Source: an uncultured Candidatus Saccharibacteria bacterium
Lineage (GTDB): Bacteria > Patescibacteriota > WWE3 > UBA101185 > UBA10185
Length of the DNA: 56,219 bases
NCBI GenBank assembly: GCA_964574405.1
Contig: CAZNNN010000002.1
Coordinates: 1-56,219, forward strand
Reading direction: 5' to 3'
The notes under the pieces were generated by a model. It was not told where the DNA came from, did not search any database, and saw nothing but the letters and a program-made list of their open reading frames with translations. Position 1 is the first letter of the stretch. The number at the start of each line of letters is the position of its first letter. A program made the position numbers and the translations under genes. Of the stretch, positions 14,943 to 29,089 are shown in pieces.

Positions 14943-14994
14943 CTCGCTGTCTGTGATTTGCATCACTTTTAACAGACAGCGAGCCTTTCTTTTT
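14943..14994 (+). terminator. Rho-independent terminator
   Basis: 12-bp perfect stem CTCGCTGTCTGT/ACAGACAGCGAG followed by CCTTTCTTTTT. Confidence 0.7.
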
Positions 14995-15018
14995 GACAGA
15001 TAGTAAAATAGCCCTATA

Positions 15019-16059
15019 ATGGTAGCTATATCAAAAACCTCTATTACCACATGGGAATATCGCAGGGACTACCAAACAACACTGGTGGTGGGTACTTGTT
15101 ACCTTATTGCAAATGGGTTTTTTAGAAATAACGGGTTTTATCCTGTACCTGCAAACAGAAGCTACAGAGAGTTTAATACGGTTTTACTACCGAAGGTGGA
15201 CTACAACAAGATCCACAGATTCTGGAATCGAGCTGAAAAGATACATTGGGATTTCTTACCTACAATAGTGGATAAGGATCTTTATACCAAAGTAGACAGT
15301 CTTATCTCAAAAGATTTAATTCCCCCAGAGTATCAAGGTACGGCAAAAATCTGGGAAAAAGCAGAAAATGAGGTTGTTGCCGAAATTACTAAAATTCTTC
15401 ATCTAAATACAAACCAGATAAGTAAGATTTACGTACACCCTACCCGCTTTGGTTTAAACTCAACCTTTGAAATCACCCAAAGTCCTCAAAAAGTATTTAG
15501 AATACATCTAAGGGAGGACGCAGATATTCACCAAATTGCCTTTGCCCTCGTTTCCGCCCTTACCAGAATGTTCGTCATTAAAAATCTCTCGGGCAGTTGG
15601 GAGGAATCTCAAATAATTGCGGATTGGGTCATCAGACAATCGTCTGTAGGAAGCGTACTTAAAAAGTATCAAGGATCCACAAATTTTGCGGGAACTATAA
15701 ACGCCATTAGATCCAAGGAAAACGGAAACATCGTCAAAATATCACAAGACTTCTGCTCAAAATGTGGCATCCCTTTTAAAGAGAGCAACTTTACCGCCAG
15801 TAACGGGGATATTTTCGTTAACAAGCAAAAACTAGAATTGCCTAATATGTCAAGAAAAATCCTAACTAGACTTGTTGAAAATAAGGGTGTTATTGTAACT
15901 CCAGACGACATTTCTATTGTTTTGGGAATGACCGAGGAAACTTTTAGTTTATACGCAGTGTCCAAGGCTATACAAAGAGTAAGGGACGAGTTAGAAAAAA
16001 ACAAACTTTCTGCTACATACATTCAAACCTTTAGAAGGGGTGGCTACATGCTAAGATGA
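15019..16059 (+). CDS. OmpR/PhoB-type winged-helix DNA-binding protein with a novel N-terminal domain of about 250 aa (no receiver domain)
   Basis: The C-terminus LPNMSRKILTRLVENKGVIVTPDDISIVLG...SKAIQRVRDELEKN...IQTFRRGGYMLR matches the Trans_reg_C pattern. Confidence 0.7.
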   Translation: MVAISKTSITTWEYRRDYQTTLVVGTCYLIANGFFRNNGFYPVPANRSYREFNTVLLPKVDYNKIHRFWNRAEKIHWDFLPTIVDKDLYTKVDSLISKDLIPPEYQGTAKIWEKAENEVVAEITKILHLNTNQISKIYVHPTRFGLNSTFEITQSPQKVFRIHLREDADIHQIAFALVSALTRMFVIKNLSGSWEESQIIADWVIRQSSVGSVLKKYQGSTNFAGTINAIRSKENGNIVKISQDFCSKCGIPFKESNFTASNGDIFVNKQKLELPNMSRKILTRLVENKGVIVTPDDISIVLGMTEETFSLYAVSKAIQRVRDELEKNKLSATYIQTFRRGGYMLR

Positions 16060-24925: not shown

Positions 24926-25393
24926 CTAGTTTTTTAAGCTGTTTTTCAACCAATCCATTCTAACAATATATGACGAGTAGGGCTTGTAAAGCTTAGAGTA
25001 CAGCAGATTAGGCGTAAATAAATGTAAAAACTTACCAGTATTCACTAAGTGTTCTACCAAACAATAGAAGTCACCATCTCCAGACGCTATAATAGCCTTA
25101 TCGAAGTTATTAATCTGAAGCATTGTGTGTAACACCAATTCGGCGTCCACATTTCCTTTAACTATTCCACCGGGTAGCATCATTGTAGGCTTAAGAATTA
25201 CAGTGTAACCAGCTTGCTGTAATCCGGTATAAAGAGACTCGTTTCCAGCTCTGTAGCCTATAAATAGGTATGCGCTACTCACATTGTATTTATTGCGCAG
25301 ATACTGGCGAAATTTTCGCCAATTTAACTCCCAACCAAGGGATTTAATCCCCAAATTAATATTCTGACTATCTATAAACGCGTAATTTGCCAC
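24926..25393 (-). CDS. NYN/LabA-like (DUF88) domain protein, putative RNase
   Basis: MANYAFIDSQNINL...IASGDGDFYCLVEHL. Confidence 0.8.
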   Translation of the reverse strand: MANYAFIDSQNINLGIKSLGWELNWRKFRQYLRNKYNVSSAYLFIGYRAGNESLYTGLQQAGYTVILKPTMMLPGGIVKGNVDAELVLHTMLQINNFDKAIIASGDGDFYCLVEHLVNTGKFLHLFTPNLLYSKLYKPYSSYIVRMDWLKNSLKN

Positions 25394-25440: not shown

Positions 25441-26598
25441 TTACAAAAAGGATCTTATGGGGGTTGAGACAAGCATGTCCTTATAATCACCTACTTGTGC
25501 CCTTTTCTTCTTGTGCTCACAAACCACGGATACAATAAAATCAGTAACAAGTGCCTTTAGCTCCCCACCTGTTAATTTTCCACTCTTGTAATCTTCGTAA
25601 GTTTTTTTTACCAAAGTATTATCAGCACAATGAAAATTCAGTAAGCTAAAAACAGGACAAATCTCAGGTATGGCACCAAGATCTCTGTGTACCGAAAGCA
25701 AGGAGACCGACCCTGTGTAAGCTTTTGTGATCTTGGTTTTTATAGTATCCGCATCATCGGTTAAATAAATCGCGGTCTCTGGTTTAGAACCCGACATTTT
25801 TTCCAGAGGGTTTTTGAGGCTGGGTTGAAATTTAAAAACCATCTCGGAAGGAGGTATAAAACCTGTTTTCTTTGCTATATCTCTTGATAGAAGCAGATAT
25901 GGGTGCTGATCTATTCCCACAGGTATGAGTGTGTCTCTTTTCCCCCCAAATTCTGGCAATTGTGGCATAAGTATTTGGGCTAACTGGACTGCTGCCCTGT
26001 AAAAAATCTTGCCTGAATTGTCCAAAGAATCCTCACCAAATATCGATTTTAAATATCCCATGTCCACATACTTACTTAGGTACATTGCAAAATTGTATAT
26101 ATCCGGATAGTCCGAAAGCACATAAAATCTTGTGCGTTCCCTTTTCAATCCAAGGGCTAGAATACTTGGTATTATTTCTCCGTAGCCAATCCTGCGACTG
26201 TCTGCAATACTGGAAACTTTTGAATCAATGTATGACTCGTCACTAGTAATGGGAATGTACACAAATGCCCCTAAGGTTTGTAAATACGAAAGAAGATCAA
26301 ACAAAACCTTGTGTCCAAAGTGTAACGGAGAGGATGGATTGAGCCCCGAAACAACAGTAAAATCCTGCCCTTTTGCCAGGTAAGAGGAGATGTTTTCAAA
26401 ACCCAAATGGGCAAAAACCATATCTCGATCAAAGTGAAAATCCAAAACGCCATAATAAGCCTTTAAATATCTCTTAACTCTGGAAAAGTCCTCTAAACCC
26501 AAATCCTCTATCTTTTTTGAGTATTGTTGAAGTAACAGCTCTTTGAGACCCTTCTTGCTCTCATATTCCCTTATTGCCAATTTTTCATTATCTGTCAT
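25441..26598 (-). CDS. trpS: Tryptophanyl-tRNA synthetase, archaeal/eukaryotic type
   Basis: GLNPSSPLHFGH (HIGH-type) and KMSGSKPETAIYLTDDADTIKTKITKAYTGS (KMSAS-type). AGGAG lies 5-6 nt upstream of ATG 26598; the ORF-track start at 26625 is probably too far upstream. Confidence 0.8.
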   Translation of the reverse strand: MTDNEKLAIREYESKKGLKELLLQQYSKKIEDLGLEDFSRVKRYLKAYYGVLDFHFDRDMVFAHLGFENISSYLAKGQDFTVVSGLNPSSPLHFGHKVLFDLLSYLQTLGAFVYIPITSDESYIDSKVSSIADSRRIGYGEIIPSILALGLKRERTRFYVLSDYPDIYNFAMYLSKYVDMGYLKSIFGEDSLDNSGKIFYRAAVQLAQILMPQLPEFGGKRDTLIPVGIDQHPYLLLSRDIAKKTGFIPPSEMVFKFQPSLKNPLEKMSGSKPETAIYLTDDADTIKTKITKAYTGSVSLLSVHRDLGAIPEICPVFSLLNFHCADNTLVKKTYEDYKSGKLTGGELKALVTDFIVSVVCEHKKKRAQVGDYKDMLVSTPIRSFL

Positions 26599-26605
26599 AT
26601 ATCTC

Positions 26606-27610
26606 CTATAATTCCAACGGTTCAAAAATGTACTTCTGAACCAACCTAATTACATCATTTCCCGAAGGCAAGTTAAAGTTGCTTTCGTTGGCAAGAAGTC
26701 CAAGGTCTTTGGTAATCAGTGCTTTTGCTAGCAAACCGGTTAAATATAACTCCCTAACGGCATTAGGAAGAGTAATATCTGCTGGACAGAACGAGCTTTT
26801 AATAAGCTCTTCAATCTGGTTTAGACTTGTCTTACCCAGGACGACTCTAAAATTCTGTAATTTATTACTACCAGCCTTATATGGGGTTAGACCGTATTTT
26901 TCAACTTCCGGATGTTTAAGAAGATAATCAAACTGAAGACCTAAAGGATAGGTGGGTTTAAGGTAAAAACCTTGCAATGGCAGGCGCTTGAGGCTTTTCC
27001 TAACAATATTTGCCATTCTGTCGTAATTGATCTCGCGCTTAGGACCTACTTTTATATCATAACCGGTTATGAGGGCAACTTCTTCTAGCGAATATTGAAA
27101 CTCCGCCTCACTTTCCTGCTTTAGTTTATTTTTTAGAACGGTCTTTTCTGCCAAATCAGCCATCTCGTGGCTTTCGCTAAAAACTCGCCTAACATTCGCC
27201 AGCGCTTCCTTAAAAGTTGAGGTCTCGAATAAATCGCTCATCCGTTCAAATTTTAGTGCCGTGCGGTATGTCGCACAAATTTTTGACTGCATTTCTGTGT
27301 TTTTACTGATCTGTTTTTTCACACCTTCTTCATCAACGCTTTTATTTCTCACAGAGGCAACATCACCAACAATCACCGTGCCGGCGGTCTTTGTGCCAGT
27401 CTCCGCTAATAACGAATTTAGGACAGAAAGAAAAAAGTAGTATTTTAGAGAATCAATCGTCAACCCAAAAGTATCGTAAGTTTCGCCGTAAACTAATTTA
27501 AAATCTGTAACCCTGCCTATTTCCAGCATCGAATCTTTAATGGGCAACAGGCTATCATCCACAAAATAGGCTCTAAGATTATCTAGTATTTGTTTGTTTA
27601 TATTGGTCAT
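26606..27610 (-). CDS. Hypothetical 334-aa protein between tRNA-Trp and trpS
   Basis: No recognisable motif. The ORF-track N-terminus (27611-27694) reads through the tRNA-Trp gene, so the start is set at MTNINKQ. Confidence 0.6.
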   Translation of the reverse strand: MTNINKQILDNLRAYFVDDSLLPIKDSMLEIGRVTDFKLVYGETYDTFGLTIDSLKYYFFLSVLNSLLAETGTKTAGTVIVGDVASVRNKSVDEEGVKKQISKNTEMQSKICATYRTALKFERMSDLFETSTFKEALANVRRVFSESHEMADLAEKTVLKNKLKQESEAEFQYSLEEVALITGYDIKVGPKREINYDRMANIVRKSLKRLPLQGFYLKPTYPLGLQFDYLLKHPEVEKYGLTPYKAGSNKLQNFRVVLGKTSLNQIEELIKSSFCPADITLPNAVRELYLTGLLAKALITKDLGLLANESNFNLPSGNDVIRLVQKYIFEPLEL

Positions 27611-27615
27611 AGTTT

Positions 27616-27690
27616 TGGTGAGTGGGACAAGAATCGAACTTGTGTTTCTCGTTTTGGAGACGAGAGTTCTAGCCGCTGAACTACCCACTC
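27616..27690 (-). tRNA. tRNA-Trp (anticodon CCA)
   Basis: The reverse complement folds as GAGTGGG TA GTTC AGCGGCTA GAAC T CTCGT CTCCAAA ACGAG AAAC ACAAG TTCGATT CTTGT CCCACTC A CCA. Confidence 0.9.
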
Positions 27691-27695
27691 GCACC

Positions 27696-28010
27696 CTATT
27701 TGTTATAAAAAGGAGGTATGTAGGAAAGACGCTCTTTTAGAATCTTAAAACGCCCTTCTTGTAGCTCCTTTGAACCTCTAGTGACCGTAGCAACCCCCAC
27801 GGAAAGATCTTGAGCTATATTGTGGTGCGACTCCCCTTTTAGTAACCTTGACACTATTTCAAGCCTTAAGGGCAACTCTTGCAACTCTTTCACGGTTAAC
27901 AAACCTACCAGAAAATCCTCCATAGTGGCGCTATCCCCTATGTCCATGAGGACGCTTAGAAGATGCTCAAAATATTTATTTTTATAGATATTGTCTGGTC
28001 TTTTTTTCAT
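27696..28010 (-). CDS. Trp-repressor family protein (TrpR / YerC-YecD-like)
   Basis: LLTVKELQELPLRLEIVSRLLKGESHHNIAQDLSVGVATVTRGSKEL aligns with E. coli TrpR [47 protein letters not shown]. Confidence 0.85.
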   Translation of the reverse strand: MKKRPDNIYKNKYFEHLLSVLMDIGDSATMEDFLVGLLTVKELQELPLRLEIVSRLLKGESHHNIAQDLSVGVATVTRGSKELQEGRFKILKERLSYIPPFYNK

Positions 28011-28025
28011 GCCATTTCTCTTCCT

Positions 28026-28043
28026 GTACTAGTACGCTAGTAT
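28026..28043. promoter_or_regulatory. TrpR-type operator GTACTAGTACGCTAGTAT (CTAG-N4-CTAG)
   Basis: 14 of 18 positions are identical to the symmetric E. coli trp operator GTACTAGTTAACTAGTAC. It overlaps the -10 element and the expected transcription start. Confidence 0.6.
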
Positions 28044-28070
28044 TATACATGGGTATAACGAGTTTGTCAA
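28042..28070 (-). promoter_or_regulatory. Perfect consensus sigma70 promoter TTGACA-17-TATAAT
   Basis: On the minus strand, TTGACA is at 28070-28065 and TATAAT at 28047-28042. Confidence 0.65.
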
Positions 28071-29089
28071 ATGTAGTGCGTGGCTCTTCCGTTCCCTACC
28101 CTCTTTATCAAGCTCATCTCCAAAAGTTTTTTAAAGTCTAATGCGCGGGTAGCTTTGGCTCTAGGGGTTAGCTTTGAATATTGCGCGTCAGTTATAAAAC
28201 CGTGTTTTGAGACATAGTCAAGAAGCAATTTCTCATAAGGCTTTATAGTATTTGCAGGACTAGTACTAACCGTTTCCAACTCGCCCTTTACACGCAATAA
28301 CTCATCTACAACGCCATCGGTGAAGTACTCTAGCCACTGTGTAAAATCAAGCTTTTCGTAAATTTCGTAGTAGTCTCCTAAAACTCCTACTTTTTCAAAA
28401 TATTTGGAAACATTTTTGTTGTAATAATTTTCAAAACTAAACAGATTAAAGGTATCCAGCCCCATTCTTGCCAGTATTACTTTGGTAAGTAATCTAGTGG
28501 TTCGTCCATTCCCGTCCATAAAAGGGTGAATAACCACAAACTGCTTGTGAAAAATACCTGCCAGTATTAACGGGTCTAAAATTTGTTCGTTTTTAGTAAC
28601 AAAGGCGAGAAGGTCTGCTATCAAATTGAGTACATCTTGGTGTTGGGGAGCGAAATAGGCAATAACTCGCGTGGCTGGATTATTAACCACCTCGGAAACC
28701 TTTCTAAAACTGCCACAATTAAAATCGGCTACTAAATCTTTGGTTACAATCTTGTGAACATTCAAGACAAGCTTTTGATCTATTTCCAAAGTTTCGTTTT
28801 TTATCAAAGGGTTAAGCTTCTCTAAAGCCTGATTATAGTTTAAGACCTCCCTTTCACTATCTCTTAAATGCTGGGGGCTGGTTTTTAAAATCCTTCTTAC
28901 TTCCAATAACGGTAACGGATTACCTTCGATTCGCGTGGATGAGTGGGAGGATGACGCCTTGGCAGTTTTTTCCAGTTCCGCCAGCACAATTTGAGGAAAT
29001 TTTTTGTTGTTAAGCTCTGCAGTAATAACTGCCACCCTTTTGATATTTTCTATTATTTTAGGGGTTACCTCGTACTTTGGATTAAACAT
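28067..29089 (-). CDS. Fic-domain protein (AMPylase family) with a C-terminal winged-helix domain
   Basis: HPFMDGNGRTTRLL (HPFxDGNGRxxR) plus the N-terminal inhibitory motif STRIEGN ((S/T)xxxE(G/N)). Confidence 0.9.
   Translation of the reverse strand: MFNPKYEVTPKIIENIKRVAVITAELNNKKFPQIVLAELEKTAKASSSHSSTRIEGNPLPLLEVRRILKTSPQHLRDSEREVLNYNQALEKLNPLIKNETLEIDQKLVLNVHKIVTKDLVADFNCGSFRKVSEVVNNPATRVIAYFAPQHQDVLNLIADLLAFVTKNEQILDPLILAGIFHKQFVVIHPFMDGNGRTTRLLTKVILARMGLDTFNLFSFENYYNKNVSKYFEKVGVLGDYYEIYEKLDFTQWLEYFTDGVVDELLRVKGELETVSTSPANTIKPYEKLLLDYVSKHGFITDAQYSKLTPRAKATRALDFKKLLEMSLIKRVGNGRATHYI

Follow-up and report, generated by a model that had tools for sequence, protein, structure and literature searches.

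A tRNATrp(A73)-ORF1-TrpRS-A1 operon was described in Microgenomates in 2017 by Mukai, Reynolds, Crnkovic and Soll (Life 7:8; PMC5370408), who reported archaeal-type tryptophanyl-tRNA synthetase (TrpRS-A) genes in a few members of that group. Their paper, with a data set of 12 TrpRS-A instances, places ORF1 invariably between the tRNA and TrpRS-A1, notes that the module proteins contain no tryptophan (Trp) residues, gives A73 with G1-C72 as the archaeal/eukaryotic identity set of tRNATrp, describes tandem archaeal TrpRS-A/ORF1 pairs, states on the basis of SWISS-MODEL that ORF1 has no Rossmann fold, and suggests that the module is an antibiotic-resistance or stress copy. We have analyzed here a locus of this kind in a stretch of 56,219 nt (the window) from contig CAZNNN010000002.1 of assembly GCA_964574405.1, which derives from an uncultured Candidatus Saccharibacteria bacterium (GTDB WWE3; UBA101185; UBA10185). 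The locus comprises a trpR-like repressor gene, a tRNA-Trp gene, ORF1 and an archaeal-type trpS, and is one instance of the published trp repressor-tRNATrp(A73)-ORF1-TrpRS-A1 operon of Microgenomates-group bacteria within the candidate phyla radiation (CPR). We consider it probable that it constitutes a self-contained, Trp-starvation-inducible Trp-charging module of the DPANN-archaeal type.

The gene arrangement has been known since 2017 and the window is one further member. An original prediction, made from the letters of the window without database searches, had presented the co-regulation of repressor, tRNA and synthetase as non-classical, but because the arrangement was already published that finding adds only another instance. 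What is added here is the promoter and operator, the predicted class Ic fold of ORF1, its fusions to TrpRS, the closeness of the ORF1 start codon to the tRNA, the extent of Trp avoidance, and the putative alternative Trp sensors in sibling loci. The 2017 paper is silent on operators, on T-box or leader-peptide control and on ORF1::TrpRS fusions, and a literature search on TrpRS-A/ORF1 and on T-boxes in CPR found nothing beyond it; a preprint of 2025 on metagenomic TrpRS pairs and a transcriptome paper of 2014 had no bearing on the module. A bacterium with a tRNA/synthetase pair of archaeal identity is among few natural cases; the locus bears on how fixed the rules of tRNA identity are across domains, and genetic-code engineering can draw on the module for Trp pairs that are orthogonal by nature.

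Organization and conservation of the locus

The elements of the locus, all on the minus strand, are as follows.

28042..28070, minus strand: sigma-70 promoter, TTGACA at 28070-28065, a 17-nt spacer and TATAAT at 28047-28042 (12/12 match to consensus)
28026..28043, minus strand: putative TrpR operator ATACTAGCGTACTAGTAC, two ACTAG cores 8 bp apart
27696..28010, minus strand: trpR, TrpR-family repressor, 104 aa, Trp-free (PF01371)
27616..27690, minus strand: tRNA-Trp(CCA) with G1-C72, A73 and encoded CCA (ARAGORN and Rfam tRNA)
26606..27610, minus strand: ORF1, 334 aa, predicted divergent class Ic paralogue without HIGH or KMSKS, Trp-free (AlphaFold2/Foldseek)
26603..26607, minus strand: AGGAG, the trpS ribosome-binding site, overlapping the TAG stop codon of ORF1 (26608-26606) (read from the sequence)
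25441..26598, minus strand: TrpRS-A1, archaeal/eukaryotic-type, 385 aa, Trp-free (PF00579, TIGR00233, PRK12285)

The original prediction had set out four co-directional elements on this strand, and re-analysis bears out every one of their positions. The gaps of 5, 5 and 7 nt between trpR, tRNA, ORF1 and TrpRS, the AGGAG over the ORF1 stop codon, and the 47 nt from trpS to a downstream NYN-domain gene can all be seen in the sequence itself. Nothing that resembles a promoter or terminator was found in the 5-7-nt gaps, which offer no space for internal ones either, and the four elements form one compact co-directional unit. Gene order, the A73/G1-C72 tRNA, the ORF1 family and the Trp-free proteins are shared with the operon of Mukai et al., whereas the clade to which the window belongs is distinct, with a 104-aa TrpR and gaps of only 5 nt. 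ORF1 of the window matches ORF1 of Beckwithbacteria RBG_13_42_9 (P0065) with an E-value of 2.8e-67, and in this reference genome (locus L048) the order is tRNATrp-ORF1-TrpRS(384 aa)-bacterial TrpRS(331 aa).

A profile of the ORF1 family, scanned against one genome per GTDB species, gave 39 loci. ORF1 is followed by TrpRS in 36 of these, and in 28, all of them bacterial, an ORF1 homologue comes straight after a tRNA-Trp and TrpRS comes next; the TrpRS proteins beside ORF1 are 42-60% identical to that of the window. Bacterial loci come from Microgenomates, Shapirobacteria, Dojkabacteria and other Patescibacteria, and archaeal loci (L025-L031, L036, L038 and L039) from the DPANN groups Aenigmatarchaeota, Nanoarchaeia, Woesearchaeota, Micrarchaeota and Nanohaloarchaea. 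Four independent assemblies found through their TrpR homologues (L040-L043) have the full four-element order with equally tight spacing, with a TrpR 80-81% identical and an ORF1 about 50-55% identical to those of the window and with different genes upstream. The spacing in these nearest relatives is trpR-(5-6 nt)-tRNA-(6-7 nt)-ORF1-(2-5 nt)-TrpRS, and an ATGA overlap of the ORF1 stop codon with the TrpRS start codon is seen in the majority of related loci. With 246 members at E<=1e-3 the ORF1 family is small, and among 1.84 billion representatives it makes up 142 clusters at 50% identity. The arrangement is far beyond chance, and the order recurs well outside this contig, to which the original prediction had allowed that it might be confined. 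Among the carriers are records with titles that include 'uncultured Gammaproteobacteria', 'Pseudomonadales' and 'Methanosarcinales' (L001, L003, L005, L006, L008, L009, L014, L016, L019-L021, L024, L032 and L034), which are probably mislabelled carriers of a CPR-type cassette.

The presence of ORF1 and TrpRS-A homologues in DPANN archaea, together with the known problem of cross-contamination between CPR and DPANN bins (PMC5370408), would fit an assembly or binning artefact in which DPANN DNA was joined to a bacterial contig. We regard this as extremely improbable, because there are bacterial genes on both sides of the cassette (Fic upstream and YchF downstream) in one co-directional array, the cassette itself has a sigma-70 promoter of consensus sequence together with a TrpR of bacterial type, and at least five independent assemblies show the same order. 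The bacterial copies also differ systematically from the archaeal ones in their linked tRNA, their T-box-like leaders and their Trp-free proteins, all of which are described below.

The repressor, its promoter and its operator

The product of trpR matches PF01371 (Trp_repressor; E 3.5e-14) with 53.1 bits, where the cut-off is 27, and it reaches 23.6 bits with the YerC/YecD model, lower than its score with the TrpR equivalog model TIGR01321 (given below). Alignment with E. coli TrpR shows conservation of Thr44, Arg54, Ile57, Val58, Ala80, Thr81, Thr83, Arg84, Gly85 and Ser86, which we take to be residues of the L-Trp (corepressor) pocket and the DNA-reading residues of helix E (ATxTRGS). There are 114 homologues of this protein, mostly of about 85 aa, and many are labelled as TrpR family.

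The promoter ahead of trpR is one of two perfect TTGACA/TATAAT matches in the window; the other, at 14993-15020 on the plus strand with a 16-nt spacer, lies just upstream of an open reading frame at 15019-16059. The putative operator ATACTAGCGTACTAGTAC extends over the 3' end of the -10 box and the probable start of transcription, and holds the only exact ACTAG-N3-ACTAG (ACTAGNNNACTAG) in the window. It matches GAACTAGTTAACTAGTAC at 13 of 18 positions, and the ACTAG cores of the two sequences coincide in their 8-bp phase. We take GAACTAGTTAACTAGTAC to be the trp operator of E. coli, a species in which 5421 of 5426 genomes have it upstream of trpL. A box of the type (G/A)TACTAGTA(C/T) lies at or beside a -10-like hexamer in all seven of the CPR trpR upstream regions examined (the window, L017, L033, L035, L040, L043 and L044), and no TrpR box was found upstream of the tRNA in loci that have no trpR.

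We infer from these features that the operon is an autoregulated, Trp-repressed single transcription unit. The suggestion in the original prediction that a Trp-sensing repressor controls these genes is plausible, given the perfect promoter and E. coli-like operator ahead of trpR and the retention of pocket and DNA-contacting residues. The likeness to E. coli TrpR extends from the PF01371 domain and the pocket and helix E residues to a two-core operator over the -10 region and an autoregulatory position. The enteric TrpR regulon consists of biosynthesis and transport genes and is not known to include trpS or a tRNA, and the repressor of the window differs from its E. coli counterpart in being the first gene of the operon that it would control.

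It is also conceivable that TrpR controls only itself or unrelated genes, with the tight packing reflecting genome compaction and the downstream genes expressed constitutively by read-through. CPR genomes are compact and contain long co-directional arrays, a TrpR homologue with the same upstream box stands beside unrelated genes in L044, and in L017 and L033 trpR is followed by a terminator-like hairpin of its own. We nonetheless judge this improbable, since trpR and the tRNA are only 5-6 nt apart in the window and in L040-L043, there is no promoter-like site between the elements, and the sole strong upstream promoter bears the operator. Moreover, trpR is linked to the module in at least three diverged lineages, and loci without trpR hold other, putative Trp sensors at the same position. 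It heads few loci overall (the window, L017, L033, L035 and L040-L043, of which L017, L033 and L035 are within the 39-locus scan), and because a hairpin parts trpR from the tRNA in L017 and L033, co-transcription of trpR with the module would be a trait peculiar to the window's clade.

The L044 locus (4840-5420 on a 1.19-Mb contig) encodes an 85-aa TrpR homologue with 57% identity and has a ATACTAGTAT box upstream. Its trpR is followed by about 160 nt containing a hairpin and a U-run, then by a gene for an unannotated 294-aa protein and an Asp/Glu racemase gene, with no trpS. Given this box and these unrelated neighbours, the CPR TrpR regulon may extend beyond the Trp module.

Putative other Trp sensors in sibling loci

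The search for TrpR boxes at loci without trpR brought to light T-box-like and leader-peptide elements. T-box-like leaders are present upstream of the tRNA in ten of the GTDB loci and in the published reference locus, none of which has trpR.

L048, 3640-3924: T-box-like leader
L001, 4655-4914: T-box-like leader
L002, 4650-4897: T-box-like leader
L014, 4620-4857: T-box-like leader
L016, 4640-4881: T-box-like leader
L015, 195-445: T-box-like leader
L018, 4650-4890: T-box-like leader
L022, 4675-4925: T-box-like leader
L024, 20-273: T-box-like leader
L003, 500-752: T-box-like leader
L005, 1185-1398: T-box-like leader

Each of these elements combines a UGG-bearing hairpin loop on compensatory stems (e.g. 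GAUCCGG-AGGGUUGGGA-CCGGGG) with the T-box sequence AAGGUGG(C/U)ACC and a terminator (GCCCUUG...CAAGGGCUUUUUU) that ends just before the tRNA. The strand shared between antiterminator and terminator covaries with both of its partners, reading CAAGG/CCTTG/CAAGG, CGAGG/CCTCG/CGAGG in L016, and TGAGG/CCTCA/TGAGG in L003 and L005. Rfam gave no T-box call at its gathering threshold in 16 sibling loci, and the leaders score 31-32 bits with the Rfam T-box model (RF00230), for which the gathering score is 93; Stem I is much shortened. We refer to them as T-box-like because of the low Rfam score and the short Stem I.

A second type of element is found in four loci, where a leader peptide with tandem Trp codons is followed by a GC hairpin and a U-run before tRNATrp.

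L010, about 4747-4818: Trp-Trp leader open reading frame
L012, about 4760-4831: Trp-Trp leader open reading frame
L011, about 4673-4771: Trp-Trp leader open reading frame
L017, about 4677-4745: Trp-Trp leader open reading frame

Examples of the peptides are MKLNVSTSWWQNNGLLVGDFNLA, MKLIVSQSWWCNSSLLAGDVLIS, ...MKLNISTIWWRESSPSAGDINLS and MYRQRIILRADKVWWNPQYISG, and L017 has both such a leader peptide and trpR. To judge from their sequences, these leaders look like trp-type, ribosome-mediated attenuators.

The sibling modules share with known T-box riboswitches and attenuators the T-box motif, switch and UGG hairpin, or the tandem-Trp reading frame and terminator, whereas the window has neither; the sibling leaders differ from known T-boxes in that the first gene behind them is a tRNA gene. 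The contrast that the original prediction had drawn between this locus and T-box control does not carry over to the module as a whole, since sibling copies sit behind T-box-like leaders. Taken together, the loci suggest that the module has repeatedly been wired to the supply of Trp or Trp-tRNA, by TrpR, by a T-box-like leader or by a leader peptide, and the occurrence of these sensors at the same position would be a clear natural example of regulators replacing one another before one module.

The T-box bulge offers a clue to which tRNA is sensed. By the T-box rule, the bulge base pairs with the tRNA discriminator, so that C matches G73 and U matches A73. The bulge is UGGC in L001, L002, L014, L016 and L048, and UGGU in L003, L005, L015, L018, L022 and L024, which suggests that in the UGGC genomes the charging state of the bacterial G73 tRNATrp is what turns the module on. 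This bears on the possibility that the module is a back-up or resistance system for Trp charging, turned on when the bacterial TrpRS or tRNATrp(G73) fails through an inhibitor or damage, with TrpR as a secondary substitute in the window's clade. The UGGC bulge pairs with G73 and not with the co-encoded A73 tRNA, many loci including that of the reference genome have a bacterial-type TrpRS gene just downstream, with a G73 tRNATrp in the same genome, and an antibiotic-resistance or stress copy is what was proposed for the module earlier (PMC5370408). We nevertheless regard such a role as rather unlikely. Other loci carry UGGU, which pairs with A73, and the TrpR of the window's clade would sense free Trp rather than a specific tRNA. 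The strict avoidance of Trp fits Trp scarcity at least equally well, and no second, bacterial-type TrpRS or G73 tRNATrp was found within the 56-kb window, so that TrpRS-A1 may be the sole TrpRS here. One of the downstream bacterial-type TrpRS genes, at 7089-8627 in L016, encodes an N-terminal extension of ~190 aa.

The synthetase, Trp avoidance and the tRNA

TrpRS of the window matches PF00579 (E 2.5e-33) and, with 204 bits where the cut-off is 176.75, TIGR00233 (trpS). Among NCBIfam models it fits those of the archaeal/eukaryotic-type PRK12285 set best, in keeping with its earlier assignment as an archaeal-type trpS. The HFGH and KMSGS motifs are present. The protein has three scattered Cys residues only, whereas archaeal homologues carry a four-Cys motif; the C-x22-C-x6-C-x2-C Fe-S motif is absent, as in the A1 subtype, and there is no Trp. 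By these sequence criteria it is assigned to the A1 subtype of the TrpRS-A clade.

TrpR, ORF1 and TrpRS of the window all have zero Trp residues, while the open reading frames of the window average 1.0% Trp, and the joint chance of this is about 2e-4. Among 26 bacterial loci, ORF1 is Trp-free in every one and TrpRS-A in 24, with the two exceptions looking like mis-set gene ends, and in the archaeal ORF1/TrpRS pairs neither protein is Trp-free in any of the five. Since they contain no Trp, the module proteins could be made while Trp-tRNA is scarce. This pattern of avoidance fits proteins needed under limiting Trp-tRNA, and extends the remark on Trp-free proteins in the 2017 paper.

The tRNA-Trp of the window is called by ARAGORN and by Rfam (tRNA, 67.9 bits), and its acceptor end reads GAGTGGG...CCCACTC-A-CCA, which gives G1-C72 and A73 and shows that CCA is encoded. 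The same G1-C72 and A73 are present in all tRNA-Trp genes linked to ORF1 in the bacterial loci, and the additional tRNA-Trp genes of L004 and L015 are of the bacterial kind, with A1-U72 and G73. The distance from the 3' end of the tRNA to the ORF1 ATG is 0-2 nt in 16 of the 29 loci with a linked tRNA (e.g. CCCACCTATG), 5-16 nt in ten (5 nt in the window) and 50-61 nt in three, and in L003 the CCA of the tRNA overlaps the ATG. The 5-nt spacer of the window has no Shine-Dalgarno sequence, so that the ORF1-trpS message, once the tRNA is cut out, would be practically leaderless.

A tRNA co-transcribed with protein genes is not unusual in bacteria, as in the E. coli co-transcripts thrU-tyrU-glyT-thrT-tufB and metY-nusA-infB. 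For a leaderless message, mitochondrial polycistrons with their 'tRNA punctuation' provide the closest parallel. The window shares with these systems a tRNA within a protein-coding transcript that needs excision and, with mitochondria, a message that would start near the AUG. It differs in that the tRNA is cognate to the synthetase that follows and lies between the genes of a regulator and an enzyme, and in that its processing is a prediction.

ORF1 and its probable partnership with TrpRS

Single-sequence and profile searches with ORF1 gave no Pfam, NCBIfam or PDB match, and comparison of the ORF1 family with TrpRS-A by hhalign gave a probability of 0.3%. Homology of ORF1 to synthetases at the sequence level was rejected on these grounds (Pfam, NCBIfam, PDB phmmer, PDB profile and hhalign all being negative), and because all of the sequence searches were negative the link between ORF1 and the synthetases is one of predicted fold alone. 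The AlphaFold2 (AF2) model, built from an alignment of 37 sequences, has a predicted local distance difference test score (pLDDT) of 89 and a predicted template modelling score (pTM) of 0.90. Its best Foldseek matches in the PDB are archaeal/eukaryotic tyrosyl-tRNA synthetases (TyrRS) and TrpRS (E 1e-9 to 1e-8, TMq 0.55-0.63), with N. equitans TyrRS 7fg6 at the top (E 9e-10, TMq 0.60) and then many M. jannaschii TyrRS structures. Identity is 13-16%, and the matches are nearly full length with 350-390 aligned columns, so that ORF1 as modelled has the complete class Ic (TyrRS/TrpRS) architecture of a Rossmann fold and a C-terminal helical domain. This predicted fold contrasts with the SWISS-MODEL-based statement in PMC5370408. 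The 'unknown gene' of the original prediction is indeed without a family match at the sequence level, but it is the published ORF1 and would be a divergent paralogue of class Ic aminoacyl-tRNA synthetases.

The region of ORF1 that corresponds to the HIGH motif is the family-invariant YGETYD-x2-G-x-T-x-DS, without a His, and the KMSKS loop reads T-P-Y-K-A-G-S-N, with pLDDT <50 at residues 244-248. About 30 residues, mostly polar and in catalytic-domain elements, are invariant across the family. We read these as a sign of selection on a pocket, which speaks against the decaying product of a pseudogene.

None of the 39 loci has ORF1 without a TrpRS-A or TrpRS-A-like gene beside it, and ORF1 is fused to TrpRS in Micrarchaeota. 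Four full-length ORF1::TrpRS fusions of 730-731 aa (P0367, at 4857-7052 of L036, P0368, P0369 and P0370) are 56-100% identical to one another (100, 83, 64 and 56%), and there are further fusions in P0252 (bacterial-type, 778 aa) and P0260. Some archaeal loci have two tandem pairs, a TrpRS-A-like gene with an ORF1 paralogue and then ORF1 with TrpRS-A. A physical or functional partnership between ORF1 and TrpRS is well supported by this genomic evidence. The AF2 model of the P0367 fusion has good halves (pLDDT 87.7), but their mutual placement is not confident (pTM 0.54).

Two described systems provide useful comparisons. The double-length TyrRS of Leishmania (PDB 3P0H/3P0I/3P0J), an analogy raised in PMC5370408, likewise joins a catalytic and a degenerate class Ic module, in a single polypeptide as do the 731-aa Micrarchaeota proteins. 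It differs in that ORF1 and TrpRS of the window are separate genes, in that the degenerate half comes first, and in that the fusion model does not have the pseudo-dimer geometry. The second comparison is with cyclodipeptide synthases, class Ic-like enzymes without ATP motifs. ORF1 resembles these in its class Ic-type Rossmann fold and loss of HIGH and KMSKS, but it is of TyrRS length with a C-terminal helical domain, has no Pfam match and is tied to a synthetase gene instead of to tailoring enzymes.

The cyclodipeptide synthases are a precedent, also raised in PMC5370408, for viewing ORF1 as an independent enzyme that uses Trp-tRNATrp or tRNATrp outside translation, or as a tRNA modifier or proofreader, with the operon supplying its substrate. 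A class Ic fold in which the two His of HIGH and the KMSKS motif are replaced would suit such an activity, as would the invariant polar residues at Rossmann active-site positions, which resemble an active pocket, and the lack of a confident ORF1/TrpRS interface in the AF2 fusion model. We think this unlikely, because ORF1 retains a TyrRS-like architecture over its full length, with the C-terminal helical domain, always accompanies a TrpRS-A(-like) gene and is fused to it in several lineages. In addition, starvation-type sensors such as TrpR, the T-box and the Trp-Trp leader are typical of charging and supply genes, and no biosynthetic genes are conserved nearby.

A model for the Trp-charging module

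We infer repression by Trp, processing sites at the tRNA, leaderless translation, and an ORF1-TrpRS complex and its action as the working parts of a starvation-inducible charging module. The strong sigma-70 promoter at 28070-28042 would give rise to a single transcript of trpR, tRNA-Trp, ORF1 and trpS, perhaps continuing into the NYN gene. When Trp is plentiful, holo-TrpR would occupy the operator at 28043-28026 over the -10 box and start site and repress the whole unit including trpR, and when Trp is low the unit would be derepressed. RNase P would free the 5' end of the tRNA and a 3' nuclease its other end, and this excision would part the trpR message from the ORF1-trpS message, the AUG of which would be only 5 nt away from the cleavage point (in many relatives 0-2 nt). 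The ORF1-trpS message would then be effectively leaderless, with trpS translationally coupled to ORF1. TrpRS-A1 would charge the co-encoded A73 tRNA, and ORF1, in which the ATP-binding signatures are lost and the conserved pocket and C-terminal helical domain are kept, would act as a partner subunit of TrpRS-A. The three proteins, being Trp-free, could all be made when Trp-tRNA is scarce.

Several observations weigh against this model. The trpR product scores 49.9 bits with the TIGR01321 equivalog model, below the cut-off of 67.25, and two residues of E. coli TrpR are replaced in it, Arg69 by His and Ser88 by Glu. Only a minority of module loci have trpR at all, and in L017 and L033 the terminator-like hairpin intervenes between trpR and the tRNA. 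The tRNA of the window encodes its CCA, and its 3' maturation would have to spare the ORF1 message. The P0367 model compares with the Leishmania pseudo-dimer 3p0j at a TMq of only 0.31 and a root-mean-square deviation of 27 A, and with this TMq and the pTM of 0.54 a canonical heterodimer is unsupported by modelling. Finally, a bacterial TrpRS or a G73 tRNA may be present in the genome outside the 56-kb window, which contains neither.

A more elaborate form of the model would hold jointly that ORF1 is a duplicated class Ic subunit that lost its ATP chemistry and became an obligate, catalytically repurposed partner of TrpRS-A in an asymmetric two-gene synthetase (a single polypeptide in some Micrarchaeota), that the cassette is Trp-free, starvation-inducible and orthogonal, that its mRNA is made leaderless by tRNA punctuation, and that three Trp sensors are interchangeable by lineage. 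We put this forward tentatively, and doubt that all of its parts will hold together. The function of ORF1 and the control of the cassette are now easier to test, and the operator at 28043-28026 provides a concrete handle.

Neighbouring genes and other features

The module is flanked by two genes on the same strand.

24926..25393, minus strand: NYN-domain gene with a GTG start, 47 nt downstream of trpS (PF01936, E 6.7e-15)
28067..29089, minus strand: Fic/DOC-family gene, the upstream neighbour (open reading frame)

The promoter begins where the stop codon of Fic (reading frame 29089-28067) has its final base. No terminator was found after trpS, and the region between trpS and the NYN gene folds no better than shuffled sequence (z = 0.84); the NYN gene may be co-transcribed with trpS. 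It has no homologue in the 39 related loci, and because of this the NYN gene is ruled out as a conserved part of the module, for instance as a processing nuclease, and is regarded as a neighbour. Both the Fic and NYN flanks are unconserved in related loci, and L040-L042 have a CYTH/HTH_17 gene upstream instead. The YchF gene lies downstream of the cassette in the same co-directional array as Fic, and the open reading frame downstream of YchF is, judged by eye rather than by any tool, presumably that of ribosomal protein S6.

Elsewhere in the window, ARAGORN calls an 89-nt tRNA-Ile(GAT) at 5827-5915 on the plus strand where Rfam tRNA is silent at its gathering threshold, and the other five tRNAs of the window are called by both programs. 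This may be a tRNA containing an intron or insertion, or a false call. Three of the sibling loci have a group I intron match some kilobases upstream of the Trp module, at 2770-2970 on the minus strand in L014, 1987-2198 on the plus strand in L001 and 205-462 on the minus strand in L005; the matches score 82, 57.7 and 51 bits respectively, above the Rfam gathering score.

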